From NCBI GenBank assembly GCA_943358095.1, contig CALRGT010000003.1, forward strand, positions 6,169 through 70,168: a DNA stretch of 64,000 nucleotides, written 5' to 3'. This stretch comes from an uncultured Candidatus Saccharimonas sp. (GTDB taxonomy: Bacteria > Patescibacteriota > Saccharimonadia > Saccharimonadales > AQU-01). The notes beneath the pieces are model-generated. The model did no database searches and was not told the DNA's origin. It saw only the letters and a list, made by a program, of their open reading frames with translations. Every line of letters starts with the position of its first letter. Position 1 is the first letter of the stretch. Below, piece after piece: positions 7,494-45,942 of this stretch. The translations under genes were made by a program, and so were the position numbers.

Positions 7494-9104
7494 ATGCACG
7501 CAAAGAGTATAATAGGACACAGTTATATGGATCCGTCTACAAAAAAATCTGATATATTTATTTTGCTCCAAGAGCAGTTATTAAATGCGCGCGCGAACGA
7601 CCAGCTTATTCGCGCCGACAACACCAAAGGCAAGAAGATCACCGTGCCTAATACAGGCAAGGCTATATCGTCAGCCTACGAGCAGTTGCGCAATGCTGCC
7701 GAGTACGCAGAAGATCATTTAATTTTGCAGAGAGCGATTAGAAGATTTTTGAAGCGTAGTTTGTTTATCGGCAAGGTTGAGTTGGTTGATCTTGGTGAGG
7801 ATTTAATTATAGAACTCGTGCAAGCAGGTTATCTTAAGGAGACGGAGCTAGGCTCAAAAGTTGCCGGCTCTATTAGTCAGTTAGCAGCTAGCTACGAGGA
7901 TGTTTATCACCGGCTTCGGCAATCGCATGTTACTAAGGTACAGGCTCAAGATTGGGTGCTATCTATATTGTCGGTAGAGATTGAGTCGATCCTGAACCCT
8001 CAAAACCATCATTACGCACTATTATATGTTGCTCAGTATCATTTTATGGATATGCTGCCGCGCCGAAAACTTGTTGTTAATCAAACCGAAGATGATCAAT
8101 ACGAGATTTCATTATATGCGGCCGTACATCTTGCCTTGTTTAAGTCAGATATAGCAGTGGTTAGGCACGATATAATGCGCGTTTATCAGCAATCTCCAGA
8201 CGATTTGAAGGGTTTTATATCTATGAACCGACATATTGACGATTTGTATCTCGCCAAGCTAACTCATCGACTTAGGCGTAATGTCGGCAAGAACGGTGCT
8301 CCGTTTAGGATTCTTAAAAGTATGTGCGACGATTTCCCCAATACAGTAGACATGCTCAGTGATCGTCAGCAGTTTCTGCAGGCATACAGACGACAAATTG
8401 ATATCGAGTTCGAGAATGTACACAAAAGAGTGAACAAGGGAATTGTTAAGAGTATTTTCTTTATCCTTATTACAAAAGTTATTATCGGTGTTGGCATTGA
8501 GGTTCCCTATGATCTTGTAACTACTGGCGCAGTAGCTGGCGTTCCGTTGCTGGTGAATCTTGCCACGCCTCCACTTTATATGGCAAGTCTAAAGTTTAGT
8601 CTTAAATCGCCACAATCACTTAGCAAGCAGACTCTCATAGAATATATAAACACTATGATTTACACTGACGACAAGCCGCCTCTATTGATGGTTAGGCCGG
8701 TGTCTAGTAGTCGATATATGGTTAATTGGGTGTATTCTATTTTGTTCTTTGTGCCGTTCGCTTTGCTTGTTTATATTCTAAAATTGCTAGATTTTAATAT
8801 TCCACAGATGATCATATTCTTTACATTCTTATCTACTGCCAGCTTCCTAGGTTTCCGACTGAGCAGTAAGATTCGTGAAGTTGAATTCGGCGATCGTCAG
8901 TCATCCGGTTTTATGACGTCATTAAGAGATTTTTTCTATCTGCCGTTTATAGTTTTTGGGCAATGGATATCTGGTAAGTATTCTAAGATTAATTTAGTAA
9001 GTAATGTGCTGGATATTGTTATAGAGTTGCCGTTAAAGACAATACTTAAATTAGCGCGTCAGTGGGTTACTTTCCTAGATCAAAAACAAGAAGAAATATA
9101 CTAG
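7494..9104 (+). CDS. hypothetical membrane protein (soluble N-terminal ~320 aa, C-terminal multi-TM region)
   Basis: 536-aa ORF with 4-6 hydrophobic helices in the C-terminal third. No family confidently recognised. Confidence 0.6.
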   Translation: MHAKSIIGHSYMDPSTKKSDIFILLQEQLLNARANDQLIRADNTKGKKITVPNTGKAISSAYEQLRNAAEYAEDHLILQRAIRRFLKRSLFIGKVELVDLGEDLIIELVQAGYLKETELGSKVAGSISQLAASYEDVYHRLRQSHVTKVQAQDWVLSILSVEIESILNPQNHHYALLYVAQYHFMDMLPRRKLVVNQTEDDQYEISLYAAVHLALFKSDIAVVRHDIMRVYQQSPDDLKGFISMNRHIDDLYLAKLTHRLRRNVGKNGAPFRILKSMCDDFPNTVDMLSDRQQFLQAYRRQIDIEFENVHKRVNKGIVKSIFFILITKVIIGVGIEVPYDLVTTGAVAGVPLLVNLATPPLYMASLKFSLKSPQSLSKQTLIEYINTMIYTDDKPPLLMVRPVSSSRYMVNWVYSILFFVPFALLVYILKLLDFNIPQMIIFFTFLSTASFLGFRLSSKIREVEFGDRQSSGFMTSLRDFFYLPFIVFGQWISGKYSKINLVSNVLDIVIELPLKTILKLARQWVTFLDQKQEEIY

Positions 9105-9165
9105 ATTACTGATAGGTCACTTATTCCACTCCGCAACTCATTGTGTTGTTAGCCTATCTATTAAT

Positions 9166-9203
9166 AAATATACCGCTAGCCAATGACTAGCGGTATATTT
9201 GTT
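9166..9203. terminator. bidirectional terminator between convergent genes
   Basis: 13-bp stem AATATACCGCTAG / CTAGCGGTATATT, loop CCAATGA, T-rich 3' flank. Confidence 0.7.
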
Positions 9204-9222
9204 CTAGATCTATGTAAATCTT

Positions 9223-11154
9223 CTATTCGAAGGTTACTGGTACTAGTTCGGCGTTAAGCCTCGAGTCTTGGCCTAGTCCGTAGTAGTCATAGGCAGGACT
9301 TGAGTTGTTTGCAAGTGAGGTGTATAGAAGTGAACGTAGTTTCCTGATACCCTTGTGACGCTTAGGAATAAATCTTTCACGTGCTACGTAAATAATCCAG
9401 TCTTTCATGTCGTCGTTTGGTGTTAGTTTGTCATTTGCGGCAATGTCACGTATTACTTGTTCGACATCAGGCTGTTCCATGAAGCCAAAGTTAGCGCTAA
9501 TTGCAAGTAGACTAGTGCCTTTCTTGTGGTTGTTCTCGAACTCTTTAATCGTGTAACGATCGGCCTCGTCAACATATGGTCGCTTAATTTGTTTAATGTT
9601 AAGGCTAATAATATGGTTTGGTAGACTTTGGTAACGATTAATGAATAGCTCGAGCAGTGGTGGCGCCATGTCGGTAAGCTTATTGACGCTACGGTCAGAT
9701 AGTACTAATAGGCTACGTTCAAAGACGTGCTCTTGCTTGTGCTTAATTTTCAATATTTTGGCAATGGTAAGGGTCGAGTGACTGTTCAGGGTCTTAGACC
9801 AGTGGTGGCGACCCCATCCCCACGCACCCATAACCGCTGACAGCGTTAAGCCTATTGTGATCGGAACATAACCGCCCTGGAAGAACTTTAGACTATTTGC
9901 AGTCAGGAACATACTGTCAAGCGCTAAGATCGGCAAGAAAACAGCAAGACTTACAAGTTTTGACCATCTCCAAATTTTTTGGGAGATTAAAATCATACTT
10001 AAGGTAGTCACAAACATTACGCCCGAAACAGCCAGGCCGTAGGCACTGGCCAGATTGGTGCTACTGCCAAAGCCAATCACTAGAAGTACACAGCCAACAT
10101 ATAGGGCCCAGTTTACGAACGAGATATAGATCTGACCATGGTGGTGTTCGTGGGTATGGCTGATACGGAGACGCGGCAAGAGGCCTAGAGCGATACCCTG
10201 TGATGTTAGACTAAAAGCCCCAGAAATAAGGGCTTGGCTTGCGATTACCGTTGCCAGGCTGGCAAGAATTACCATTGGAACGAGAAGTGCAGACGGAACT
10301 AAGCTATAGAAAAGACTCCCACCTATTACTTCTCGGCCTTGGAGTAGAAAAGCACCTTGGCCCAAGTAATTTAATATCAGGCAGGGCATAACAACAACGA
10401 ACCAACTTATACGAATTGGTAGTGCCCCAAAATGTCCCATATCGGCATATAACGCTTCGCCTCCGGTTATGACCAGCACAACCGATCCAAGTAAAATAAA
10501 TAATTTTTCAATCGGGAATAGCGTAAACGCACGTACGGCAAATGCAGGGTTAAATGCTTCCAGAATAGAAGCATCACTAATAATTTCGCGGATACCGAGT
10601 GCAGCCAGTGATATGAACCATATCAATATAATTGGTCCAAATAACTTACCAATCTTATGTGTGCCATATGACTGGATCGCAAATAGGCCTGTTAGTATCA
10701 ATATAGTAATTGGGACAATATATGCGCTTAGTGTTGGGGTAATCACTCTAAGGCCTTCGACGGCAGACAGTACACTGATAGCAGGGGTGATCACACCTTC
10801 ACCAAATAAAAGTCCAGCTGACATCATGAGTAAGGCAAAAACTGGCAAAACAATTTTTTGCCTATATCGTTGAAGAAGCGCGAAAAGTGAAAAGACTCCA
10901 CCCTCTCCTTCGTTATCGGCTCTAAGTACCCAAAATATGTACTTAAAAGCAATGACAATAATAAGTGTCCAAATTATAAGGGATATTAGGCTAAGTATAT
11001 TTGTTCTGGACAGTTCTGGCCTAAAGTGCCCAAAGAACATTTCGTTTACTGAATACAGTGGACTGGTGCCGATATCGCCGTAGACTATACCGAGTGCACC
11101 AAATGATAATCCGAGCACTCCTAATTTGGAGCGCTTTGTAAGGTGATCTGACAT
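9223..11154 (-). CDS. kup: KUP/HAK/KT family potassium transporter
   Basis: 643 aa, 12 TM plus cytosolic C-domain. N-terminal GALGIVYGDIGTSPLY and ADNEGEGG motifs are diagnostic of Kup. Confidence 0.95.
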   Translation of the reverse strand: MSDHLTKRSKLGVLGLSFGALGIVYGDIGTSPLYSVNEMFFGHFRPELSRTNILSLISLIIWTLIIVIAFKYIFWVLRADNEGEGGVFSLFALLQRYRQKIVLPVFALLMMSAGLLFGEGVITPAISVLSAVEGLRVITPTLSAYIVPITILILTGLFAIQSYGTHKIGKLFGPIILIWFISLAALGIREIISDASILEAFNPAFAVRAFTLFPIEKLFILLGSVVLVITGGEALYADMGHFGALPIRISWFVVVMPCLILNYLGQGAFLLQGREVIGGSLFYSLVPSALLVPMVILASLATVIASQALISGAFSLTSQGIALGLLPRLRISHTHEHHHGQIYISFVNWALYVGCVLLVIGFGSSTNLASAYGLAVSGVMFVTTLSMILISQKIWRWSKLVSLAVFLPILALDSMFLTANSLKFFQGGYVPITIGLTLSAVMGAWGWGRHHWSKTLNSHSTLTIAKILKIKHKQEHVFERSLLVLSDRSVNKLTDMAPPLLELFINRYQSLPNHIISLNIKQIKRPYVDEADRYTIKEFENNHKKGTSLLAISANFGFMEQPDVEQVIRDIAANDKLTPNDDMKDWIIYVARERFIPKRHKGIRKLRSLLYTSLANNSSPAYDYYGLGQDSRLNAELVPVTFE

Positions 11155-11276
11155 TATTACCTCTTAATTGATTAATTATTGTAAAAGCTTGGAGAAGTTT
11201 TTGTTTGAATTTAAGTGCCTATAGTAACACATCTAAATACGCAAAAAAAGTCTTTTCAGATATAATTTATTTAGCT

Positions 11277-17340: not shown

Positions 17341-18045
17341 GTGACTATGAAATATTCCAGTAATAAATTTTATTGTTTTTCGCCACCAGTAATGCTGGCA
17401 ACTATTATTATCGAACTTAGCTTGGCGATTTATACATTAGTTCGCTACAAACTAAATCCAAAGAAAAGATTAGTTCTTGCAATTTTGCTGTTATTGGCCA
17501 CGTTCCAGCTAGCGGAATATAGCGTCTGTGGACGGTTTAATCTTAATGCAGAAGCATGGTCGAGGGTCGGTTTTGTTGCTATTACGATGTTGCCACCTCT
17601 AGGTATACATTTGATAAAAGTAATAGCCGGCAAGAGTGCAAAGCTCTTGTTGCTCGTCGCCTATCTGTCTGCCTTGGTATGGATAGTGGCGTTTACTTTT
17701 AGCAGTAATGTATTTGCAGGCCAGGTGTGCGCAGGTAATTATGTGATATTTCGTCTAACCAGTACCGCAAATCTAGGTTATTTTATTTACTATTACTCCT
17801 GGTTGTTTATTAGTATATTTTTGGCTCTACATTGGTCGAGAAACACCAAAAAACAGACATCAAGGGCGTTAATGCTATTAGTCTTGGGGTATCTAGTATT
17901 TTTGGTGCCTACTACTGTAACAAACAGTTTATATCCTAATTCAGGCAGGGGTATACCTAGTATTATGTGTGGCTTTGCCGTTTTCTATGCGATTATCTTG
18001 GTATTCGGCGTTATGCCTTTGTCGCTTGACAAACGTAAAGCTTAA
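17341..18045 (+). CDS. hypothetical 7-TM membrane protein
   Basis: 234-aa hydrophobic ORF. No family confidently recognised. Confidence 0.55.
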   Translation: MTMKYSSNKFYCFSPPVMLATIIIELSLAIYTLVRYKLNPKKRLVLAILLLLATFQLAEYSVCGRFNLNAEAWSRVGFVAITMLPPLGIHLIKVIAGKSAKLLLLVAYLSALVWIVAFTFSSNVFAGQVCAGNYVIFRLTSTANLGYFIYYYSWLFISIFLALHWSRNTKKQTSRALMLLVLGYLVFLVPTTVTNSLYPNSGRGIPSIMCGFAVFYAIILVFGVMPLSLDKRKA

Positions 18046-18142
18046 GCTTTAAATGAATAGTATCTCGTGCGCTCTGCGGCGCGTGAAATAAAAACAACCA
18101 AAACAAAAAAAACCACCCGCCGCGGGTGGGCGCGCACGAATT

Positions 18143-18173
18143 ATAAAAACCCTATCAAGTATAGGGTTTTTAT
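18143..18173. terminator. bidirectional hairpin terminator
   Basis: Stem AAAAACCCTAT / ATAGGGTTTTT, loop CAAGT. A second GC-rich hairpin CCACCCG/CGGGTGG (18113-18129) with an A-run lies just upstream. Confidence 0.7.
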
Positions 18174-18176
18174 AAT

Positions 18177-18270
18177 GATGGAGGCACAGAGACAGCCCAC
18201 TTCAATCCGAGCCCTAGCGCCAAGCTGAAGCTTGTCGCGGTCCAGGGCTCGAAGCTCAATAACTTGACCA
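18177..18270 (-). repeat. tRNA-Ala-derived trailer (inverted + direct self-fragments)
   Basis: In tRNA sense: CTTCGAGCCCTGGACC is antisense to tRNA GGTCCAGGGTTCGAG. It is followed by a direct AGGGCTCG and CTGTGCCTCCATCA (tRNA has CTGTAGCTCCACCA). Confidence 0.6.
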
Positions 18271-18298
18271 AAATAAAAACCCATCCTTATGGGATGGG
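18271..18298 (-). terminator. intrinsic terminator after tRNA-Ala
   Basis: On the minus strand, CCCATCC-cataa-GGATGGG followed by TTTTTATTTT. Confidence 0.75.
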
Positions 18299-18307
18299 AT
18301 CTTATTT

Positions 18308-18384
18308 TGGTGGAGCTACAGGGACTCGAACCCTGGACCTCTTCACTGCCAGCGAAGCGCTCTAGCCAACTGAGCTACAGCCCC
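18308..18384 (-). tRNA. tRNA-Ala(GGC)
   Basis: Reverse complement reads GGGGCTG...TAGCTCC-ACCA with G3:U70. Anticodon stem CTTCG/TGAAG with loop CTGGCAG. T-loop TTCGAGT. Confidence 0.95.
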
Positions 18385-18420
18385 AAAATAACGTTGAATT
18401 TGATTGTTAATATTATGGTG

Positions 18421-18429
18421 ATTATACCA
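18421..18429 (-). promoter_or_regulatory. extended -10 promoter element for tRNA-Ala
   Basis: Minus strand reads TGGTATAAT about 37 nt upstream of the tRNA 5' end. Confidence 0.5.
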
Positions 18430-18503
18430 GTTGGCCAGAGCGCTTAAGCGCATCTTTTATTTTTGCAACAAGTTGCCCCAACTGAGCTTCGTCCCCAAAA
18501 TAA
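18428..18503 (-). repeat. tRNA-Ala-derived leader (direct 5' fragment + inverted D-arm fragment)
   Basis: In tRNA sense: TTTTGGGGACGAAGCTCAGTTGG (tRNA has TTTTGGGGCTGTAGCTCAGTTGG). Then GCGCTCTGGCCAACTGG, antisense to the D-arm CTCAGTTGGCTAGAGCGC (15/18). Confidence 0.6.
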
Positions 18504-18664
18504 TCAAAATTAATTATACCATGATTTATAGATAGTAAGGCTGCATCAGAGTAGTTTAGCCTAGACGCAACTTAACAGTGCATTCTGATGTACTGTAGAT
18601 TCTACTAGAAGTCATATATACTTAAGTGGCTAGTTGATCGCCAAATTTACTGCTAGCAATATAT

Positions 18665-36906: not shown

Positions 36907-39528
36907 TTAATTTGATGTGTATTGTCTGTGCAGATAGGTGCCGTATGTTTTGTCGCCTCTACATAGTTTTACTGTTTTACATACAGCGCCGTCGTACTTA
37001 GAGTAGGTTAAGAAGGTAGAGAACTTACTGCCTAGTTCTGCGCCAGTTACATTCTCAGCCATCTCTCTTATAGGATATCCAATGTAGTGCTTGAGAGGTA
37101 TCTTGAGAATGTTGGCATAGTGCTGGTTCATATAAGCTTCGTAGCTTCTATCTACAAATTTTGAAGTGTAAATGTGATCGCTGTGATCGGGTATTATTGT
37201 GCCATTATAATCACTCAAAGTATTTATAAATGATGGGTGATAAGTGGCCATTATCTCCAGCAAGGAATCAGTCAAATTTTGAGTGCTATAAGTTGAGTCG
37301 CCATACAAAGCTTTAATGCTTGGTATTGAATCATTATAAAGCTTCTCTATACTTTCATTATTTGTGATTTTAAATCCGCCTCCTCTCAAATTACCATCAG
37401 GTAAGTGCATGTAAAGTAAAAGTATTTTATCGTTCCCTACAGGATTAGATGCAGTTATATAATGCCCGTTATCAAGCTCTACAGTACGATCAACCCAGAA
37501 ATTGTCTATTCCAGCCATTTTGGAATATGCGGCCTCTGAGCCTCTCTCTCTTCTTAGCCAATAGAAACTATTATTACCACCATCACCTGTTGTTAGGTAT
37601 ACAGTACGTACACACAATCCAGCAGTGATATATTTTTGGATATCAGGGTTCATAAATAATATATCATCATCTTGGTGAGCGACTATATTTAGAACGCTCG
37701 CTTTAGTACAAGAAGTATTGGTGAGATTTTTCATCTTTGTTGGTACGACAGCCAAAGTAGTTTGCTTACTTATATTATTAGCTATCGCTCTGTCGCGGTC
37801 TGAGTAGTCGTAGAACAATAAGAGTTCTTTTGGATTTTTGACGGTACCCGAAACTACAATGCTGCTGTTTGGTTCGCCGTATTTTGATATGACGGTGTTG
37901 ATGCTACATCCAGGAAAGTCAGTTTGACCCTTTTCTACAGAAAGCAGGTATGCAAAACTGCTGGTTTTTAAGTCCATCTGCCATTCGCTACTTGTTAGTA
38001 CGTTTTTATAGGTTGTACAGTCGCTAAGTGGCAGCACCCTTACTTTGCCTTTAGAGACTTGTTTGATCGGTAATACTCGCCAATAATCCCCTATCAATAC
38101 GCTAACTGGCTGAGCATTAAGAATTTGTGATATGACTGAATTACGAAATGTGAATTCGTCGTTAGATGACGACTCTAGTCGATTGTAGTTGTAGATAGCA
38201 GGCATGCTTATAAAACTGAGCAATGCAATAGAATAGCCGGCTATAACTAACTTTTCTGAAGATATATTAAATTTGCGTAAATATGTGGTGCCGGCTATGA
38301 AAATTGTAAATAATGCGATGCTAAGATATCTCGCGTCGCCAGCGTAATAATGATTAGTCACTACGAATGCTCCTAATGCCGCAACAGTAGACCAGATCAT
38401 TGCTACAGACAATGTATTGTTGATGTCGGCGCCAAAATCTCCATGCTTTCTTAGACTATTTTTGATAATCATAAACACCGCCACAATACCCACAATAAAT
38501 AACGCGAAGTTTATTAATAATGCAGGTCCAGAGTATGAAAGTATATTTGCTAAAGCGTGTTTAGGAAATTGGCTTAAAATATTTGTGTCGTAGGCAAAGT
38601 TAGCTCCAAAGTTCACTAGAAGGCCACTAACTCCATATGCGATGCCGAGAATTAATTGATGTAGGCTTGACGCTAGATTGTACGTATTAGTTGATTGTGA
38701 CGAAAAATTTACTACACCAATAGTACTAACTAATCCTAGTATTGAGTATGATCCTGCTGCTCCTGCTAATACCCCAAGCACCCATCTGGCTGATGTCGTT
38801 ACTAGATTCCACCTTCGACTAAGCGCGTATACGAATAGCGCTATCAGTGCGCCGCCTAAAGATATATTAAAGAACAATGCGTCAGATGCTATGAGTACGC
38901 TCAGGCCAATTACTCCTACCAGGAAGAGCCTATGCTTGATTTTTGGAGAACGTAGCAGCGCCAAGATACTGGCTATATATAAGACATATTCTATATTTCT
39001 GGTAGTGGCCATGCCCATATTGACTGGCAATAAAGCTCCAGCATAGGGCTGAGCAGGTATTTGTAGAAGTACTGAAGCTAGAGCTAAAAAAATAGTTCCA
39101 ATTACTAAAGGTCGCTTTTCGATTTTGTAGAGTATTTTGCAAAAAAACAAAACGGTTGCTAGGGCCAGTATGATTGTTGCGACCTGATAACTTCTGGCTG
39201 TGTCGCCAAAAAGATGAATTACATAAAATACTGGCCATTTCAAAAACTGAGAATGTTGTCCAGGTAGTGTTGAGTTTCCGAAGCTCGTAGAAGATTCGTA
39301 TAGGTATGGGTTTACTAATTGGTCGGCGTTGTTGCTATGCACTCTTGCGCTAAGGCCTGCCCAAATGACTGTGCTTATTATAAGAAATATGACCGACCCT
39401 ATAAGATAATTTCTCTGATATTTTTTGTCGTTAACCATCTTCTCAAAGATGTTTACACGTGATTGCTTGTGATTATTGATGATAGTACGTTTGTTGTTTT
39501 TGTTAGGTTTACTCATAGATTCAATCAT
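36907..39528 (-). CDS. fusion protein: polytopic membrane domain (GT-C/ArnT-like topology) + C-terminal PIG-L/LmbE family deacetylase
   Basis: 873 aa. About 13 hydrophobic helices in the N-terminal 450 aa. The C-terminal domain has VAHQDDDILFMNPD (the AHPDDE-type PIG-L motif). Confidence 0.7.
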   Translation of the reverse strand: MIESMSKPNKNNKRTIINNHKQSRVNIFEKMVNDKKYQRNYLIGSVIFLIISTVIWAGLSARVHSNNADQLVNPYLYESSTSFGNSTLPGQHSQFLKWPVFYVIHLFGDTARSYQVATIILALATVLFFCKILYKIEKRPLVIGTIFLALASVLLQIPAQPYAGALLPVNMGMATTRNIEYVLYIASILALLRSPKIKHRLFLVGVIGLSVLIASDALFFNISLGGALIALFVYALSRRWNLVTTSARWVLGVLAGAAGSYSILGLVSTIGVVNFSSQSTNTYNLASSLHQLILGIAYGVSGLLVNFGANFAYDTNILSQFPKHALANILSYSGPALLINFALFIVGIVAVFMIIKNSLRKHGDFGADINNTLSVAMIWSTVAALGAFVVTNHYYAGDARYLSIALFTIFIAGTTYLRKFNISSEKLVIAGYSIALLSFISMPAIYNYNRLESSSNDEFTFRNSVISQILNAQPVSVLIGDYWRVLPIKQVSKGKVRVLPLSDCTTYKNVLTSSEWQMDLKTSSFAYLLSVEKGQTDFPGCSINTVISKYGEPNSSIVVSGTVKNPKELLLFYDYSDRDRAIANNISKQTTLAVVPTKMKNLTNTSCTKASVLNIVAHQDDDILFMNPDIQKYITAGLCVRTVYLTTGDGGNNSFYWLRRERGSEAAYSKMAGIDNFWVDRTVELDNGHYITASNPVGNDKILLLYMHLPDGNLRGGGFKITNNESIEKLYNDSIPSIKALYGDSTYSTQNLTDSLLEIMATYHPSFINTLSDYNGTIIPDHSDHIYTSKFVDRSYEAYMNQHYANILKIPLKHYIGYPIREMAENVTGAELGSKFSTFLTYSKYDGAVCKTVKLCRGDKTYGTYLHRQYTSN

Positions 39529-39564
39529 TACAGTATGACTTAAAATTGCGTTTCTTAAAAGAGG

Positions 39565-39984
39565 TTATTCGATAGGTGGAAAGTTGTTATCGCCAAAAAT
39601 ACGGGTTTTGTATAGATAAAAGTTCCAAATAGTAGTCGCACCAAGCGCGATGGTTCTACTTATTGGTGCCGGCACTCTATCGCCTAATGTTTTTGCTAAC
39701 ATAATAGTGAAGTAGAAATTGAATAGTACTAAAGCTGATGCATAAAAGACTTGCTTAAAAAGTACTTTTTTGTGCATACGTTTGTCTCTGAATGTTAATA
39801 GTTTCTGTGCCCAGAATGACACCACAAAACCTGTCCAATAACTTATGCCAACCGCTAATATAGTGTTTGCTCCGAATTTTTGGGCAATTACTATAATTAT
39901 TAGCTCCAGTAAATATATTGACACCCCTACTACTAAATAGCGACCAGTGTTTGTCTTAAGGAATTTGCTATATTTACTGCGCAT
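39565..39984 (-). CDS. GtrA family membrane protein
   Basis: 139 aa, 4 TM. RYLVVGV...E N-terminal motif and WNFYLYK C-terminal motif. Confidence 0.8.
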   Translation of the reverse strand: MRSKYSKFLKTNTGRYLVVGVSIYLLELIIIVIAQKFGANTILAVGISYWTGFVVSFWAQKLLTFRDKRMHKKVLFKQVFYASALVLFNFYFTIMLAKTLGDRVPAPISRTIALGATTIWNFYLYKTRIFGDNNFPPIE

Positions 39985-40952
39985 TAATTTTTGCCAGAAT
40001 GAATCGACTTACTCCTGTCGATAACATATAAAGGTCTTCGTTTGCTAAGTGTGTGAATATGTGAGACGTAAAGCGATAGTAGCCCGAGCGACAACAGAAC
40101 TATCCCTACGAGAAAAACAATTAAAATGCCAAGCATGGCATTACCTGTAAATTTCCAGCTTAGAGGGTCGTTCATTATTAGTTGTTCAATTATGACTGCC
40201 AACCCTAGAAGTAAGGAGCAGGAAGTTATAAATATTCCTACCCAGCCAAACATATAAAGAGGGCGTGGTGATGAAGATATGAAGCTATCCGTAGCGAGTT
40301 TAAATAGCATATTTCTAGTATATGATGGGCTACCTCCGTCTCTATCGTTGGCGTTAAACTCAATATATTCACGGTCAAAACCTAGCCAGTCAATAAGACT
40401 GCGAGTTACCCGGTTATTTTCTGGAAGTTCTAGGAATGCCGATTGAACGCTTCGGTCAATTAGACGAAAGTCGCTCGAGCCAATGTTTACGGCTTGGCCT
40501 GTTATGGCTTTAAAAAGCTTGTTGAATATCTTGGGTCCACTGTTCTTTAGTAGGCCTTTTCCGCTAGGATTGACTCGTATGCCTATTACAACTTGGGCAC
40601 CAGACTGCCATTTGGCTATAAACTCTGGTATTAGATCTACTGGGTGTTGACTGTCAGCGTCCATTGTTATTATTGCGTCACCTTTAGCTTCTGCGATTCC
40701 GGCAGTTAGTGCTGCCTCTTTGCCAAAGTTGCGAGATAGTCGGACGTAGTTAATGTTGCTGTAATCTTTCTGAAGGGATTTTATAATTTTGGGGGTGTCG
40801 TCGACGCTGCCATCATCGCAATAGATTATTTCAAAAGTCAGATTAGTATTTTTAAGAACATCGTAAAGTTTTATATGAAAAGCTGGTAGAGCCTCGGCTT
40901 CGTTGTAGGCCGGTATGACCATTGAAATATTGGGACTATTAGAATTTTTCAT
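39984..40952 (-). CDS. family 2 glycosyltransferase (polyprenyl-phosphate sugar synthase type, 2 C-terminal TM)
   Basis: SMVIPAYNEAE, DDGSVDDT, DADSQHP (DXD) motifs plus two C-terminal TM helices, as in DPM1/ArnC/GtrB-like enzymes. Confidence 0.9.
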   Translation of the reverse strand: MKNSNSPNISMVIPAYNEAEALPAFHIKLYDVLKNTNLTFEIIYCDDGSVDDTPKIIKSLQKDYSNINYVRLSRNFGKEAALTAGIAEAKGDAIITMDADSQHPVDLIPEFIAKWQSGAQVVIGIRVNPSGKGLLKNSGPKIFNKLFKAITGQAVNIGSSDFRLIDRSVQSAFLELPENNRVTRSLIDWLGFDREYIEFNANDRDGGSPSYTRNMLFKLATDSFISSSPRPLYMFGWVGIFITSCSLLLGLAVIIEQLIMNDPLSWKFTGNAMLGILIVFLVGIVLLSLGLLSLYVSHIHTLSKRRPLYVIDRSKSIHSGKN

Positions 40953-41120
40953 GTATTGGCTAGATTATACCAAATATCAAGCCTTGCTGTCGCATCTAGT
41001 TGTGTGATTGGTTTATTGCAGTTCTTTGCTGGCTATATATACAATCGAAAAACTATAAGAATAATATGGTATTTCATGGGATTAGTGGTGTATTATGGTT
41101 ATGGTAGGAGGGGACAATTT

Positions 41121-41708
41121 GTGAGGGTTACTGTTTTCGGTGAAACCAATCGCGCTAAACACTTTATATTAAATAGAGCTCTTTCTGCAGGTTATTCTGT
41201 TAATGTGATCGAAAATGGCAAAAAAAAACATCCCAAGCGAAAGAATCTCAAGGTATTTAGTGGCAGGCCTCAAGACGTAAAAAGCATTAATCGAGCAACC
41301 AAAAACACTGACGCGGTATTATGTTTATTGCAAGACGCTCTGAGCGATAAATCTGAAGCTTTTATCTATAATCTTGTTTCTGTAATGGAGAGCAAGTCTA
41401 TTCGCAGGCTAGTAATTTATTCTTGCACTCAAGAGCAAAATGCTGGTGCAAGTATGGAGACCAGTAGGCTGGTTGCATTATTCAAATTTAAGAAATCCCC
41501 AAGCCATAGCGACATAAAAGAGATTCTTAAAAAATCAAATATAGACTGGACAATCGTTGGGCACCCTCCAGTTACAAGAACACTCAGCAGCGATATTACT
41601 AAAAGCCAGGAATACCCTGAAAGCTTCGGAGCGGATTTAGCTAAACGATTAGTCTCTCAGATAACAGACTCATCATCAATTCGTGAAACACTACTACTCT
41701 CGGCGTAA
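41121..41708 (+). CDS. NAD(P)-binding (NmrA/SDR-a5-like) domain protein, degenerate Gly motif
   Basis: GTG start with an AGGAGG SD 8 nt upstream. VTVFGETNRAKHFILNRALSAGYSV resembles a Rossmann N-terminus with GxxGxxG degraded. Confidence 0.5.
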   Translation: MRVTVFGETNRAKHFILNRALSAGYSVNVIENGKKKHPKRKNLKVFSGRPQDVKSINRATKNTDAVLCLLQDALSDKSEAFIYNLVSVMESKSIRRLVIYSCTQEQNAGASMETSRLVALFKFKKSPSHSDIKEILKKSNIDWTIVGHPPVTRTLSSDITKSQEYPESFGADLAKRLVSQITDSSSIRETLLLSA

Positions 41709-41711
41709 AGA

Positions 41712-43115
41712 CTAATTAACTGTGTAGTTAGAGGCGCTTAGCTCATTTTGAGTTTGATTCCATCTTAGACGTTCTAGAATCATATTATATGTTCGTTGGT
41801 TTGATGGCTTGGTTGTTTTGTTGGATGTTTGGACGCCTATTACACTAAATTTAAACTTGAAGGGTAATAGCCCAAGATTGCTTGTTTTAATTTGATCAAA
41901 ACAATCATCGTGAAAGGAAGCACATCTTTCTCCCAAGCTAACCCATGACTGTAGCATAGTTTCTGTTTCCGGGCTTTGATCAATACTCATTGTTAAGCTT
42001 ATAGCTGCTGAACGAGTTACTTCCTCGCTGAACTGCTGGTCAAATATAAAGTTACCCATAGAGTAGGCGATTAATTTTCCTTTATACACTTCTGTTGGCT
42101 GCACCCAATGTGGATGATTGCCGAGCACTATATCTGCACCATAATCTATCATCTTATGGTACAGAGCCTGTCTCTCTGCGTCTACAACAGAACTGTATTC
42201 AACACCCATATGAGGCATGACAATAACTGGCATATATTTTGCATATAATTTGATAGGCTCTAGGTCCTTGTCTTTTATTTTGTAATTCACGCCAGCAAAA
42301 CCACACATTGCTACTGGGATTTTTACTTCCTTCTGTGTGTCATCCAGGCGCACCCTAGCAGGAATCGCTATGACCTCGCAAGCATCGGTGCTTATACTCG
42401 GATCAAAATGTCCAAAATATTGAATTGCGTAATCGTCCAGTGCTTTTCTAGTTGCGAGTAGTCCTTCTTCGTCTTTGTAGTTATTGGTGTGGTTGTTAGC
42501 GAGCGAGAACACATTGAACCATTTAGATGCCTCTGAAAGATACGATACAGGGCAGTTAAATATCAATTTCTCTTTCTCATCTTTAATTGATGCTTGCACT
42601 CCTGGAACTGAAGGACATTCAAGGTTAGCTACCCACGCATCGTAGCTGTCTTTTTTGAACTCGCCTAAATGTCTAAAGGGGTAGGCTTCTTTTAATGAGG
42701 TTTCTTGCGCCCACTTGTTTAGATTCCGTCCCCAGTAAACGTCGCCCGCAAATAGAACTCTACTTTCTAGAATTGTTGATTCCGGAAGTTTGGTCGAGTA
42801 GTCCTCCATCCGAATGGCATGACTACGTAGAGAAATGTTTACAGCAAGTCCAAGGCCAATCATGGCCAGCACCACCATACAGAGTATATTTTTGCGTTCA
42901 TCTTCTGTATATCGTTTATTGTAGCGTGCTCTACTTTTCTTTGCTTTGAACTTCAATAGAATAATTTTATTTCGCTTAATCTTATTAGCATTACGAATTA
43001 CTTTACGAATTCGATTAATGCGAAACTTCAATACCTTTAATCTTCTCTTAATAAGTCTTCGAGATTTTTTCGTAAGAAGTGCCATATTAATTACTTTCCT
43101 TTTCAGGATGCCCAA
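41712..43115 (-). CDS. capA: CapA/PgsA family poly-gamma-glutamate synthesis protein (metallophosphatase fold) with highly basic N-terminal extension
   Basis: VANLECP, SLANNHTN, LGNHPHW and YSMGNFIFDQ motifs. About 70 aa Lys/Arg-rich N-terminus, then a TM. Confidence 0.85.
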   Translation of the reverse strand: MGILKRKVINMALLTKKSRRLIKRRLKVLKFRINRIRKVIRNANKIKRNKIILLKFKAKKSRARYNKRYTEDERKNILCMVVLAMIGLGLAVNISLRSHAIRMEDYSTKLPESTILESRVLFAGDVYWGRNLNKWAQETSLKEAYPFRHLGEFKKDSYDAWVANLECPSVPGVQASIKDEKEKLIFNCPVSYLSEASKWFNVFSLANNHTNNYKDEEGLLATRKALDDYAIQYFGHFDPSISTDACEVIAIPARVRLDDTQKEVKIPVAMCGFAGVNYKIKDKDLEPIKLYAKYMPVIVMPHMGVEYSSVVDAERQALYHKMIDYGADIVLGNHPHWVQPTEVYKGKLIAYSMGNFIFDQQFSEEVTRSAAISLTMSIDQSPETETMLQSWVSLGERCASFHDDCFDQIKTSNLGLLPFKFKFSVIGVQTSNKTTKPSNQRTYNMILERLRWNQTQNELSASNYTVN

Positions 43116-43770
43116 AACCTAGAAATCCGTAATTCTGTACAAATGAAAAATTCCGGTATTTCACTCCACCATTCAAATTGCCGCCAATCATACCGGCTCT
43201 TCCGATTTCATCGCCAACGTCTACGACAATATCTACGTGCCCAAGATTATCTTCATAATCGCCGCGCCAGAATATAACAAAATCACCAATTTCTGGCTGA
43301 AGTCCTTTCTGTGTTATCTCTGCGCTGTCGTGCCACGTACCATGTTCCTTTAGATATTCTGTGAACTTACGAGAATTTGTTATTCGCCAATTTTGAGTTA
43401 AATTATCTGCTACTGGCGATCCTGCCTTCATAGTAACCCAGCTCGCAAACATGGTGCACCATTGTGAATGATAACCCTGCGTGTACATGTCGACCTGGGG
43501 TCCGCTATTAGATCCCATAGGAGATTCAAGGACGTTTTTTCTGAACTCCTGCATAGCAATATCAGCCCGTTTTATGCCATAAAATTCTTTTGGTTTTACT
43601 TCAGCCTTGGCTGTCTCTAATAATTGTTTTTGGATTTTTATTTCTGGCTGCGCTGCGACGTCAAAAAATAGGTCCTTGTAGCCAAAGTATGTATAGAACG
43701 TAACTGTAAACAAGACTAATCCAATTCGCACAAAGACTCTTTTATTAATGAAATTAAATTTAATGCGCAT
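43087..43770 (-). CDS. CHAP domain amidase/peptidase
   Basis: N-terminal TM. Catalytic Cys context QWCTMFASWV and His context LGHVDIVV. Confidence 0.7.
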   Translation of the reverse strand: MRIKFNFINKRVFVRIGLVLFTVTFYTYFGYKDLFFDVAAQPEIKIQKQLLETAKAEVKPKEFYGIKRADIAMQEFRKNVLESPMGSNSGPQVDMYTQGYHSQWCTMFASWVTMKAGSPVADNLTQNWRITNSRKFTEYLKEHGTWHDSAEITQKGLQPEIGDFVIFWRGDYEDNLGHVDIVVDVGDEIGRAGMIGGNLNGGVKYRNFSFVQNYGFLGFGHPEKESN

Positions 43771-44977
43771 GATTTTTCTCTAAGAATTTTAATAGCGCTT
43801 GAGATTGCTTGGTGTGGATATTAACAGACCCTAATAGCAAAAACTCGTCCTCTACAATAGCTTTTGATATAACTTTAAGAAGCTTTGTTCCTGCTAGTTC
43901 TGAGTGCATGCTCTCGTTCCCCATACTTACAACCACGACATTCTTGTTTTTACGTTTGCGAGTTAATTTTGCAACTTCCTTAATGACATTTTTTTCATAA
44001 TCACCGAATGCGAAGATATAGTCAGCGCCAATTGATTTGACTGCAATATTCGCAAATTGTGATACTCGATCAGGTCTATCGTGCCTATTGTTTAGAATTA
44101 CGGCTCTGATAGTCTTGTCGCCTACTTTAGTGCGCAAGGCTTTAGACGTCATTATGAAACTTTCTGAATCGTTAATAGCAAAAAGATTTGCCCAATGTAT
44201 AGTCTTTTTGTGTTTAATTATTTTCTTTAGCGCAAAGGCACCAGGATCAGGTTGTGCTTTATGCATGCCATTTAGAGCCGTGCTTCGCTTTATGCCAGTT
44301 AGTTGCGCTACTTTTATTGCTATAGCGACATTCGACTTATACTCAAAGTGATCAAACATAGACATTTGTTTATCGCCAATTCTCATACTCCCTACGGCAT
44401 GAAATTTTGTATTACGTCTCTTGCACTCTTTACGAAGAATCGTAAGAAGTTTAGGGTTTGTTTCCGCTGTAATTAAATGGCCATTTTTGGGTATAGTTGC
44501 ACATAGACTTCTGGCAATTTCCGGCAAGGTTTGCCCAAGCATATCCATATGATCTTCTCTAATATTCGTAATGACACCAATAGTTGAGTGCATGATTTTT
44601 TCTTCAAGATACTTCTGGTATATCGGGTTAATTGCCATGCATTCAAAAACAATAGCTCTGTATCCTTGGCCTTTGTACATGTCTATAATTTGTTTTTGTT
44701 CTGCAATATCTGCTTCTGTTCTCGGTATTTCCATATCTTTGCGATGTCCTATTACTAGGCGGGCAGCTGAGCCAGTAGTTTTACCAAGAGTATTGATTCC
44801 ACCCTCTCTTAGCGAGGCTGCAATTAATCGGGTAACCGTAGACTTACCGCGAATGCCGTTAACGTGAATTCGATGTTCAAACTCTTTTAAAACTAAGTGC
44901 GAATGCTTACGCTCTATTAGAACGCTGTTCGTAATATATATTGCAAATAATATGGCAATTACAATCGGAATATACAT
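43760..44977 (-). CDS. capB: poly-gamma-glutamate synthase CapB/PgsB (Mur ligase family)
   Basis: HVNGIRGKSTVTRLIAA, ECMAINP, NIREDHMDMLG, PDPGAF and NNRHDRPDRVSQFA closely follow recalled B. subtilis PgsB. Confidence 0.9.
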   Translation of the reverse strand: MYIPIVIAILFAIYITNSVLIERKHSHLVLKEFEHRIHVNGIRGKSTVTRLIAASLREGGINTLGKTTGSAARLVIGHRKDMEIPRTEADIAEQKQIIDMYKGQGYRAIVFECMAINPIYQKYLEEKIMHSTIGVITNIREDHMDMLGQTLPEIARSLCATIPKNGHLITAETNPKLLTILRKECKRRNTKFHAVGSMRIGDKQMSMFDHFEYKSNVAIAIKVAQLTGIKRSTALNGMHKAQPDPGAFALKKIIKHKKTIHWANLFAINDSESFIMTSKALRTKVGDKTIRAVILNNRHDRPDRVSQFANIAVKSIGADYIFAFGDYEKNVIKEVAKLTRKRKNKNVVVVSMGNESMHSELAGTKLLKVISKAIVEDEFLLLGSVNIHTKQSQALLKFLEKNHAH

Positions 44978-44979
44978 GA

Positions 44980-45942
44980 CTACACCGCCAATCTTGCTAT
45001 GTATGCTAATAGAAGGGAAGGAAACACGCCTTTAATCAGAGATTCACGGACAGGCTGCAAACAAAGCTCGTTCGTTAATACGGCGACAGCAATAATGGCA
45101 ATAGTCGGTGATGGATGATATTTATTCATGTGTACAGCTAGAGCGGTATAATCTAGTATAGAAATCGTCAGATAGCCCATAACTAGACTGGCTACAAACC
45201 TTTCCAGCCCAATAATCAGCGTGTATTTTTGGATAAGTTTCATAGCCCAGAAACTAATTACTACGGCTATGGATATGCACATCGCTTGCAGTGGCGCGAT
45301 AAATATTAGAAGAGCAAGAAATGGACCGATCACATATCCACCACCACGAATACCGAAGCGATAATAGATCAAGGCTGCAGTAATTAAACTTATAGGTATC
45401 ACAATAAATGGAGCAGTCAATGTTAGCGGTGTGTATTGAGCCAATTGAACGTTTAATGAGGTGAGGTCATGTTTTGGAATCACAGACGCCAATATCACAC
45501 CTGCCGACCCAGTTAGCGCAGTAACAAGTAATGTTGAAGTAATAATTCGCGACTTGCCATATTTATGAGCGCTAATAGTAATAAGTCCTGGTATGACAAG
45601 ACTAACGATTGAAGATTCTATATAAGCATTTCCGTAAGTTCTAAAAACGTACATCGTGATAAGTCCAAGAAGTGTAGATATGGACATGCAGATAATGGTA
45701 ATCCAACGACTACTAAGTGCGTGCTTGGACACAAATATGCGATAAATAGTCCAGCATATAACAGTAGAAATAAGTAAAACAATAAAGGATTTAAAGCTGA
45801 CGAATAACGTTCCTGCCAAGATTCCAGGTACGATAATACCGCCTGGTGTTACCCCATACTTTTTTTTATAAAGTATTGAGATAATTGCTCCCAGTAGAAA
45901 TAGAATGCGAATAAGTTCGATCGAACTGTCTAATATCTCCAC
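44980..45942 (-). CDS. capC: CapC/PgsC-like membrane protein, apparently duplicated (about twice the usual length)
   Basis: 320 aa. GVTPGGIIVPGILAG and SLVIPGLIT resemble PgsC GIVPAGLVVPGYLA / GIIVPGLIAN. Its stop lies 2 nt before the capB start. Confidence 0.7.
   Translation of the reverse strand: MEILDSSIELIRILFLLGAIISILYKKKYGVTPGGIIVPGILAGTLFVSFKSFIVLLISTVICWTIYRIFVSKHALSSRWITIICMSISTLLGLITMYVFRTYGNAYIESSIVSLVIPGLITISAHKYGKSRIITSTLLVTALTGSAGVILASVIPKHDLTSLNVQLAQYTPLTLTAPFIVIPISLITAALIYYRFGIRGGGYVIGPFLALLIFIAPLQAMCISIAVVISFWAMKLIQKYTLIIGLERFVASLVMGYLTISILDYTALAVHMNKYHPSPTIAIIAVAVLTNELCLQPVRESLIKGVFPSLLLAYIARLAV

Follow-up and report, generated by a model that had tools for sequence, protein, structure and literature searches.

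We analyzed a 64,000-nucleotide (nt) stretch of DNA from an uncultured Candidatus Saccharimonas sp. (contig CALRGT010000003.1; the whole stretch is termed the window) and found a compact, self-contained three-gene cassette whose products are likely to combine three-component glycosylation with de-N-acetylation outside the cell. The cassette consists of three co-oriented minus-strand open reading frames (ORFs) at positions 36907-40952, which encode a family 2 glycosyltransferase (GT2), a GtrA protein, and a protein of 873 amino acids (aa) that joins a membrane domain with the fold of GT-C glycosyltransferases to a PIG-L/LmbE deacetylase domain. An earlier note on this DNA had singled out these ORFs as an extracytoplasmic glycosylation module, and the positions and strand it gave for all three agree with the ORF list. 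The genes are as follows.

39984-40952, minus strand: GT2 gene (322 aa), predicted polyprenyl-phosphate glycosyltransferase of the GtrB/ArnC/DPMS type.
39565-39984, minus strand: GtrA gene (139 aa; Pfam PF04138).
36907-39528, minus strand: large fusion gene (873 aa), with a GT-C-fold membrane domain, a middle domain, a linker, and a PIG-L/LmbE domain.

The start codon of the GtrA gene and the stop codon of the GT2 gene share one base (TAATG), and the gap between the GtrA gene and the large gene is 36 nt; both features support an operon. Scanning one genome for each GTDB species gave 303 relatives, and 79 loci were retrieved. The proteins of the window were compared with these loci by tblastn, and 52 of them contained a full-length fusion gene together with a usable upstream flank. 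Directly upstream on the same strand, 28 of the 52 carry both GT2 and GtrA, 10 carry GT2 only, and 6 carry GtrA only (44/52 in total), so the cassette is not a chance juxtaposition. The head-to-tail operon described in the earlier note therefore holds, given the overlap, the short gap, and the conserved synteny in related loci. Three homologues of the large protein (P0096, P0114, and P0118) even carry a GtrA domain at their own N-terminus.

The GT2 enzyme can be assigned by homology to the polyprenyl-phosphate glycosyltransferases, which have a cytoplasmic GT-A domain and two C-terminal transmembrane (TM) helices. Its translation contains a Glycos_transf_2 domain (Pfam PF00535, E = 2.6e-34, aa 10-169) with the motifs DDGS (aa 46-49) and DAD (aa 98-100), the latter being a DxD motif, and a hydropathy scan revealed hydrophobic segments at about aa 237-255 and 274-292. 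Residues 7-312 align with GtrB of Synechocystis (5EKP, E = 5.7e-52), C-terminal membrane region included, and residues 8-313 align with ArnC structures (E of about 1e-34); the identity to ArnC of Escherichia coli is 29% over 309 aa (E = 2e-40). The GT2 identity and the two C-terminal helices proposed earlier are thus borne out by the Pfam domain, the two hydrophobic segments, and the full-length homology to GtrB and ArnC. With regard to sugar specificity, all equivalog matches in NCBIfam fell below their cut-offs: the best model, PgfS, scored 198 bits against a cut-off of 500, the ArnC model scored 137 of 529, and the PpgS model matched weakly (E = 3e-10) and only in the N-terminal part. PgfS starts an N-acetylhexosamine (HexNAc), namely N-acetylgalactosamine (GalNAc), protein-glycosylation pathway in S. 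mutans, and the similarity provides a faint hint to the sugar. The main argument for proposing a HexNAc donor is the presence of the deacetylase.

The second protein can be placed in the GtrA family on the basis of its full-length match to GtrA_DPMS_TM (PF04138 positions 1-117 of 117, E = 2e-12, 47.8 bits versus a cut-off of 26.1), which bears out the identity given in the earlier note for positions 39565-39984. A crude hydropathy scan resolved 2-3 of the 3-4 expected helices. GtrA is proposed to act as a flippase for the polyprenyl-phosphate sugar, or as a helper in this step.

For the 873-aa protein, we aligned 78 family members (alignment A1, on which the invariant residues and the counts of lysine plus arginine given below are based) and used this alignment for an AlphaFold2 model. 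The mean predicted local distance difference test score (pLDDT) of the model was 88.4 and its predicted TM-score (pTM) 0.84, with pLDDT below 50 only at aa 1-20 and 577-589; a second AlphaFold model, covering aa 25-600, had a pLDDT of 85.4. The earlier note had described a C-terminal region of about 400 aa that carries the PIG-L motif. The region does carry PIG-L, but it actually consists of three parts, a middle domain, a disordered linker, and the PIG-L domain, and the protein can be divided as follows.

38164-39426, minus strand: GT-C-fold membrane domain (aa ~35-455), with about 11 TM helices, predicted N-in and C-out.
39199-39348, minus strand: first extracytoplasmic loop, EL1 (aa 61-110), with invariant N67, D69, Q70, H92, K97, and P99.
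37801-38163, minus strand: middle alpha/beta domain (aa ~456-576), predicted to be extracytoplasmic, in which the GDYWRV motif and C504/C541 are invariant.
37717-37800, minus strand: flexible, poorly conserved linker (aa ~577-604), which includes the stretch of low pLDDT at aa 577-589.
36910-37716, minus strand: PIG-L/LmbE (CE14-type) zinc de-N-acetylase domain (aa ~605-873), predicted to be extracytoplasmic.
37666-37677, minus strand: H618-Q-D620-D621, the HXD1D2 motif, with the predicted first zinc ligand, general base, and second zinc ligand.
37174-37185, minus strand: H782-S-D784-H785, an HxDH motif that holds the predicted third zinc ligand.

The membrane domain belongs, as far as sequence comparison goes, to no existing family. 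It has no match in Pfam or NCBIfam and none in the PDB by phmmer or profile hmmsearch, hhalign against ArnT of E. coli gave nothing, and a Pfam scan of 52 family sequences returned a single weak match to PMT_2 (E = 0.0057) for this domain. Since these searches gave no significant match, membership in the named GT-C sequence families (ArnT/GT83, PMT_2, YfhO, and others) was rejected. At the level of fold and motifs, the domain nonetheless corresponds moderately well to the GT-C type. A Foldseek search of the PDB with the membrane part of the full model retrieved ArnT (5ezm/5f15), DPY19, PglB, STT3, and AftA, and the model of aa 25-600 gave the same GT-C matches, the best being ArnT 5ezm (E = 6.7e-4, TM-scores of 0.40/0.42). 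STT3, PglB, AftA, ALG12, and DPY19 had TM-scores of 0.32-0.45 and probabilities of at least 0.92, whereas membrane proteins other than GT-C enzymes (transporters and channels) had TM-scores of about 0.1-0.2 and probabilities of at most 0.35. A comparison with GT-C structures had been suggested in the earlier note, and all matches at or above a probability of 0.9 are GT-C enzymes.

GT-C enzymes typically possess a conserved acidic residue, in a DxD motif or a modified form of it, in their first extracytoplasmic loop (PMC8035078). The GT-C assignment had been made dependent on such an aspartate in the earlier note, and D69 is invariant within N67-x-D69-Q70. In the model, EL1 lies between TM1 and TM2 and forms short helices at aa 68-75, 80-84, and 95-106. 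Its invariant D69 and K97 are candidates for the catalytic aspartate and the phosphate-binding lysine, respectively. Another invariant aspartate, D216, is found in the outer turn between TM5 and TM6, and the invariant polar residues all map to the predicted outer face of the membrane (N67, D69, Q70, H92, K97, R177, N178, E180, D216, N310, H393, D398, and R400). Could the domain be something other than a glycosyltransferase, e.g., a transporter, a polymerase- or ligase-like protein, or a scaffold, which would make the whole protein a membrane-anchored deacetylase? The GT-C TM-scores reach only 0.32-0.45 with E values of about 1e-3, and neither Pfam, NCBIfam, nor the PDB offers a sequence match, nor does hhalign find one to ArnT. 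However, transporters fit the model far less well than GT-C enzymes do, the hallmarks of the latter (an N-in orientation and a long EL1 that contains helices and an invariant aspartate) are present, and the gene is syntenic with two genes for making and flipping a GT-C donor. We regard this explanation as very improbable.

The C-terminal domain can be assigned to the LmbE/PIG-L superfamily, albeit with an atypical location and an insertion. Pfam PF02585 matches aa 613-793 (E = 2e-14, 54.7 bits versus a gathering score of 28.2), and the motif from which the earlier note had recognized the family, VAHQDDDILFMNPD, is found at aa 616-629, inside this match. The domain retrieved BC1534/BshB (2ixd), MshB (1q74), BshB (6p2t), diacetylchitobiose deacetylase (4xm1), and TT1542 (1uan) in Foldseek, with E values of about 1e-4 to 1e-3 and target-normalized TM-scores (TMt) of 0.41-0.62; a sequence search of the PDB with the isolated PIG-L domain gave no match, whereas Pfam and Foldseek did. 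The superfamily is defined by an HXD1D2+H signature, in which His, Asp, and His are the zinc ligands and D1 is the general base (PMC4101496). In our protein, H618, D620, D621, H782, D784, and H785 are invariant in the 78 family members as well as in alignment A3, and H782-S-D784-H785 aligns with the NHPDH motif of a canonical cytoplasmic PIG-L. The metal-binding residues, on which the earlier note had staked the deacetylase assignment, are thus intact and fit the superfamily signature.

Compared with other LmbE/PIG-L members (MshB, BshB, Mca, PIG-L, diacetylchitobiose deacetylase, and teicoplanin deacetylase; CE14), the domain shares the Rossmann-like fold and the HXD1D2+H signature; it differs in its predicted extracytoplasmic location, in conserved cysteines that may form pairs, in an insertion of about 80 aa, and in a longer spacer between zinc ligands 2 and 3. 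This spacer (D621-H785) comprises about 163 residues versus 97-148 in characterized members, a range that is descriptive rather than a strict criterion, and its length is due to the clade-specific insertion, which contains a P-D-G motif (D711 and G712 invariant, P710 in at least 90% of the sequences).

Whether the PIG-L domain lies inside or outside the cell had been left by the earlier note to topology prediction, and three independent lines of evidence place it outside. Firstly, lysine and arginine are abundant in the N-terminal tail (8.3 per sequence across the 78 sequences) and in the loops at aa 137-139, 194-199, 237-239, 358-368, and 418-423, and the loops at aa 63-110, 157-178, 271-333, and 391-399 contain few of them; this positive-inside bias indicates an N-in, C-out topology with 11 TM helices. 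Secondly, six cysteines (C504, C541, C607, C639, C850, and C856) are invariant and all of them are C-terminal to the last TM helix, whereas the membrane domain has no invariant cysteine position (a single column has cysteine in 73% of the sequences). Thirdly, the nearest PIG-L relatives outside Saccharibacteria, which are 34-41% identical and come from Amnibacterium, Actinoplanes, Micromonospora, Nakamurella, a Yonathbacteria metagenome-assembled genome (MAG), and others, have a signal-like N-terminus followed by PIG-L and then by DUF7402/F5-8-type-C, PKD, PA14, or Fn3 modules, and other close relatives possess a single N-terminal TM anchor. C607, C639, C850, and C856 recur in most of the secreted or anchored relatives in the alignment, and the canonical cytoplasmic PIG-L encoded at one related locus (L068) has none of them.

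A 2014 review of the superfamily describes no secreted or extracellular LmbE/PIG-L member, and our literature searches found no characterized one. PplD of Streptococcus pyogenes is comparable in function: it is a membrane-anchored extracellular zinc deacetylase that converts N-acetylglucosamine (GlcNAc) of a wall polymer into glucosamine (GlcN) and thereby adds positive charge, its substrate being the linkage GlcNAc of a rhamnopolysaccharide (PMC8807736). Nevertheless, PplD apparently belongs to another family, is not fused to a transferase, and acts outside any three-component cassette. We considered it as a precedent for an extracellular PIG-L and rejected it, given that PMC8807736 makes no mention of PIG-L or LmbE and that PplD is cited in a review of CE4/NodB enzymes; it is a functional analogue only.

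The secreted relatives form an apparently uncharacterized clade of their own. It was seen at nine loci (L070-L078) in Amnibacterium, Actinoplanes, Micromonospora, Nakamurella, and other Actinobacteria, along with one MAG labelled 'Gammaproteobacteria', and its proteins have a signal-like N-terminus and a PIG-L domain with the same conserved cysteines, followed by one to three DUF7402/F5-8-type-C modules, or by PKD or PA14. One locus (L077) encodes two tandem secreted PIG-L paralogues. No GT2 or GtrA gene was found adjoining the secreted PIG-L genes of these loci.

We determined the distribution of the large protein in two ways. Its best 120 homologues are full length (819-1089 aa), 41-47% identical, and contain PF02585 in all cases, and among the 79 loci, every record with the full-length form is either labelled Saccharibacteria, Saccharimonadales, or Patescibacteria or is unclassified. 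An exhaustive HMMER search of 1.84 billion representative proteins with the membrane domain alone (aa 25-475) yielded 219 matches at E of at most 1e-3, 151 of them at E of at most 1e-30. The best 150 representatives include 99 proteins with a length of at least 800 aa and the AHxDD[DE] motif of the deacetylase; 31 have 500-799 aa without this motif, many of them stopping right after the middle domain (at an LLFYD motif); 17 are shorter than 500 aa, lack the motif, and are taken to be fragments; and of the remaining 3, two contain the motif at a length of 500-799 aa and one lacks it at a length of at least 800 aa. PIG-L is thus missing from about a quarter of the full-length membrane-domain representatives. 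By these searches, this is a narrow family that hardly extends beyond Saccharibacteria, and the PIG-L fusion is its dominant, but not its sole, form.

A few occurrences fall outside this pattern. A MAG labelled Bacillota encodes a PIG-L-less protein with membrane and middle domains (L063, positions 7788-9749), with no GT2, GtrA, or PIG-L gene within 8 kb. Fusion-type sequences also appear in bins outside Patescibacteria, namely a middle domain plus PIG-L that runs off the contig start in a MAG labelled Limnocylindrales (L065, 15-1175) and a sequence labelled Candidatus Binatia (P0089), and they could be due to mis-binning or to rare horizontal transfer. One locus (L033) has, at its end and about 7 kb downstream of the full-length copy, a second partial match (17798-18529; aa 422-663 of the fusion, 36% identity), which may be a paralogue.

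In three Saccharimonadia genomes (L066, L068, and L069), the two halves of the protein are split: a stand-alone protein of about 390 aa contains PIG-L, a single TM helix at its N-terminus, and a long tether rich in Pro and Ala, and its gene adjoins a gene for a polytopic protein of 526-569 aa. In L066, the two split genes point the same way and keep the domain order of the fusion, and in L068 GT2 and GtrA lie immediately ahead of the PIG-L gene. A profile of the three polytopic proteins matched the fusion family (hhalign probability 92.8%, E = 3.9e-7, 435 columns, aa 64-561 of the window protein), whereas pairwise BLASTP and single-sequence hhalign comparisons of the L068 and L066 polytopic proteins with the family were not significant. 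The middle domain is retained in the split-form proteins (hhalign) as well as in the PIG-L-less homologues (L063 and the 31 representatives of 500-799 aa). Because about a quarter of the full-length relatives lack PIG-L and three genomes have it as a separate anchored protein, the deacetylase is an add-on tailoring module. Beside its split locus, L068 also encodes a canonical cysteine-free PIG-L (10504-11229, plus strand, 241 aa, PF02585 E = 2e-29) that is presumably cytoplasmic, so that two PIG-L proteins, one inside and one outside the cell, would be encoded next to each other in this genome.

The gene arrangements also bear on the possibility that PIG-L acts on a substrate unrelated to the sugar of the cassette, the fusion merely anchoring and co-expressing it. 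Such a substrate could be the GlcNAc of the cell's own peptidoglycan, a wall glycan of the host cell at the epibiont interface, or scavenged chito-oligosaccharides. LmbE-family enzymes do accept varied GlcNAc substrates, and the secreted actinobacterial relatives are not beside GT2 or GtrA genes and carry generic carbohydrate-binding modules. Yet the fusion, the adjacency of the split genes in the order seen in L066, and the GT2-GtrA-PIG-L order of L068 tie the deacetylase to the pathway across a deep divergence, and an anchor alone would not need a conserved, transferase-like domain of 450 aa with invariant outward-facing polar residues. We find an unrelated substrate improbable.

On the basis of the homologies, folds, and gene arrangements described above, we propose a four-step scheme. 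On the cytoplasmic face, the GT2 enzyme would use a UDP-sugar to load an N-acetylhexosamine onto polyprenyl (undecaprenyl) phosphate, and GtrA would bring the lipid-linked sugar to the outer leaflet. The membrane domain, whose GT-C fold is supported by the model, would pass the sugar to an acceptor in the envelope, e.g., a wall polysaccharide, a teichoic-acid-like polymer, a lipid, or a protein. Finally, the linker-tethered PIG-L domain, with its predicted outside location and intact active site, would strip the N-acetyl group from the newly attached sugar, leaving a free amine (GlcN or galactosamine, GalN) and adding a positive charge to the surface. This agrees with the GtrB/GtrA/GT-C logic recognized in the earlier note, which now finds support in the GT2 homology, the GtrA match, the GT-C fold, and the conserved linkage of the genes, from which we infer the transfer reaction itself. 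The coupling of transfer with N-deacetylation, also anticipated there, is consistent with the GT-C fold and the intact PIG-L site; the HexNAc identity of the sugar, the acceptor, and the order of the steps are proposals.

The order given here, with transfer first and deacetylation second, is favored with real hesitation. It is suggested by the nearest PIG-L relatives, which are soluble secreted enzymes with carbohydrate-binding modules and thus imply polymeric substrates, by the existence of PIG-L-less transferases (31 of the best 150 representatives, and L063), and by the disordered or Pro/Ala-rich tethers on which the deacetylase hangs. Several points count against the scheme or its details. 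The family is known from sequences and predicted models alone, and the likeness to GT-C enzymes, at TM-scores of about 0.4 and E values of about 1e-3, concerns the fold, with no sequence-level link to any GT-C family. The best solved homologue of the GT2 enzyme, 5EKP, makes undecaprenyl-phosphate-glucose, and the similarity to the HexNAc enzyme PgfS is far below the equivalog cut-off. Moreover, the precedents closest in logic, i.e., ArnD in the 4-amino-4-deoxy-L-arabinose (Ara4N) pathway and the proposed GalN step of mycobacteria, deacylate the lipid-linked donor before transfer (PMC9671496).

The last point leads to the reverse order, in which the outside PIG-L would de-N-acetylate the flipped polyprenyl-phosphate-HexNAc and the ArnT-like GT-C domain would then transfer a cationic hexosamine (GlcN or GalN). 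This order would parallel the path from undecaprenyl-phosphate-Ara4FN through ArnD to ArnT and the proposed conversion of polyprenyl-phosphate-GalNAc into GalN for Rv3779 in mycobacteria. ArnT, which transfers a cationic amino sugar, is also the best structural match of the membrane domain, PIG-L itself works on a lipid-linked GlcNAc (GlcNAc-phosphatidylinositol), and both the fusion and the TM-anchored split forms hold the deacetylase at the membrane. On the other hand, soluble secreted relatives with carbohydrate-binding modules are ill suited to a membrane-embedded substrate, transferase relatives without PIG-L exist, and long flexible tethers are unnecessary for reaching the membrane surface. 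The parallel with ArnD is also imperfect, as ArnD belongs to a different enzyme family from PIG-L and acts at the cytoplasmic face. Deacetylation of the donor before transfer thus appears rather unlikely to us, though it is a serious contender.

The cassette can be compared with known systems. Its three-component logic is of the GtrB/GtrA/GT-C kind already known from GtrB/GtrA/Gtr* (O-antigen glucosylation), CsbB/GtcA/YfhO (addition of GlcNAc to the lipoteichoic acid of B. subtilis and S. aureus), and GtlA/GtcA/GtlB of Listeria (PMC8035078, PMC11127046). By analogy with these, the cassette would unite a GT2 enzyme for the C55-phosphate sugar, a GtrA-type protein, and a polytopic GT-C protein with an acidic residue in an outer loop, encoded by adjacent co-oriented genes. 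In contrast to them, its GT-C protein belongs to no described sequence family (neither YfhO nor PMT_2) and carries an outside PIG-L; the two reviews cited mention no deacetylase fusion. The Ara4N system (ArnC, ArnD, ArnE/F, and ArnT) is similar in the relation of its ArnC to the cassette GT2, in the structural match of its ArnT, and in its logic, since an N-acylated amino-sugar lipid is made, the acyl group is removed, and a cationic sugar is transferred outside. It differs in that the deacylase of the cassette is a fused, outside PIG-L/LmbE domain whereas ArnD stands alone and is annotated as a deformylase, in that the membrane domain has no sequence similarity to ArnT, and in that the candidate flippase is GtrA instead of ArnE/F.

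The pathway that decorates arabinogalactan with GalN in mycobacteria and corynebacteria (PpgS Rv3631, Rv3632, and Rv3779) was compared by its published description, and it shares a GT2 enzyme that makes polyprenyl-phosphate-HexNAc, a GtrA-like partner, an outside GT-C enzyme, and a final sugar that is de-N-acetylated (PMC9671496). Its deacetylase and flippase were 'as yet unidentified' in 2022 (PMC9671496), whereas the cassette offers a candidate deacetylase within the same polypeptide as the predicted transferase. Our literature searches found no paper on a PIG-L/GT-C fusion, on this membrane-domain family, or on GtrA/GT-C systems of Saccharibacteria. The statement in the earlier note that no characterized example of the fusion was known is in line with these searches and with the public records, in which identical or 97%-identical entries from Candidatus Saccharibacteria MAGs are named only 'PIG-L family deacetylase'.

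The flanking genes (zwf, a 6-phosphogluconolactonase-like gene, a PAP2 phosphatase gene, trmD, metK, typA/bipA, and a poly-gamma-glutamate-like cluster) are either unconnected to envelope glycosylation or not conserved as neighbors. The latter cluster, directly upstream of the cassette at 41712-45942 on the minus strand, encodes a CapC/PgsC-like protein of 320 aa with two CapC stretches, PgsB (TIGR04012, 351 bits, above cut-off), a CHAP-domain protein, and a PGA_cap/CapA protein, and its sequence similarities suggest a surface polymer of the poly-gamma-glutamate type in this Saccharibacterium. Between this cluster and the cassette, a divergent plus-strand ORF with an NAD_binding_10 domain (40956-41708) has a called TTG start 3 nt from the GT2 start codon. 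Its Pfam match begins only at aa 71, so its true start is probably well downstream, which leaves room for a shared divergent promoter region. The cluster (PgsB/PgsC/CapA/CHAP) and this ORF were considered as parts of the cassette and rejected, since they were near the fusion gene in 0/79 of the related loci searched. Just 5' of the GT2 start, there is one promoter-like site:

40964-40993, minus strand: GCGACA, 18 nt, and TATAAT with an upstream TG (10/12 in the consensus scan), a candidate promoter.

Scans for promoters and terminators showed no enrichment over shuffled sequence (11 promoter-like sites found versus 14.8 expected), and for this reason the site is a candidate only.

Beyond the earlier note, the analysis adds an outside location of the deacetylase, a narrow family essentially restricted to Saccharibacteria, split and GtrA-fused forms, and an unassigned family of membrane domains. 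Saccharibacteria are ultrasmall epibionts whose largely obscure surface chemistry must mediate attachment to the host and resistance to cationic agents, and the conserved, uncharacterized arrangement described here probably puts a positively charged amino sugar on their envelope. The cassette thus predicts a testable envelope feature, a decoration with free-amine hexosamine, and names candidate genes for it. It also brings out a GT-C-fold family that is entirely absent from current domain databases, and it exposes an extracytoplasmic, putatively disulfide-bearing branch of the LmbE/PIG-L superfamily. As the fusion joins steps that are normally separate, it points to a candidate enzyme class for the deacetylation that is missing in analogous pathways, such as that of mycobacterial arabinogalactan GalN. 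If the donor were deacetylated before transfer, an extracytoplasmic LmbE-family enzyme would have a defined role for the first time, the protein would also be the first outer-leaflet deacetylase of a lipid-linked donor, and the secreted PIG-L clade of Actinobacteria would represent the type of enzyme to seek for the arabinogalactan GalN deacetylase of mycobacteria and corynebacteria.

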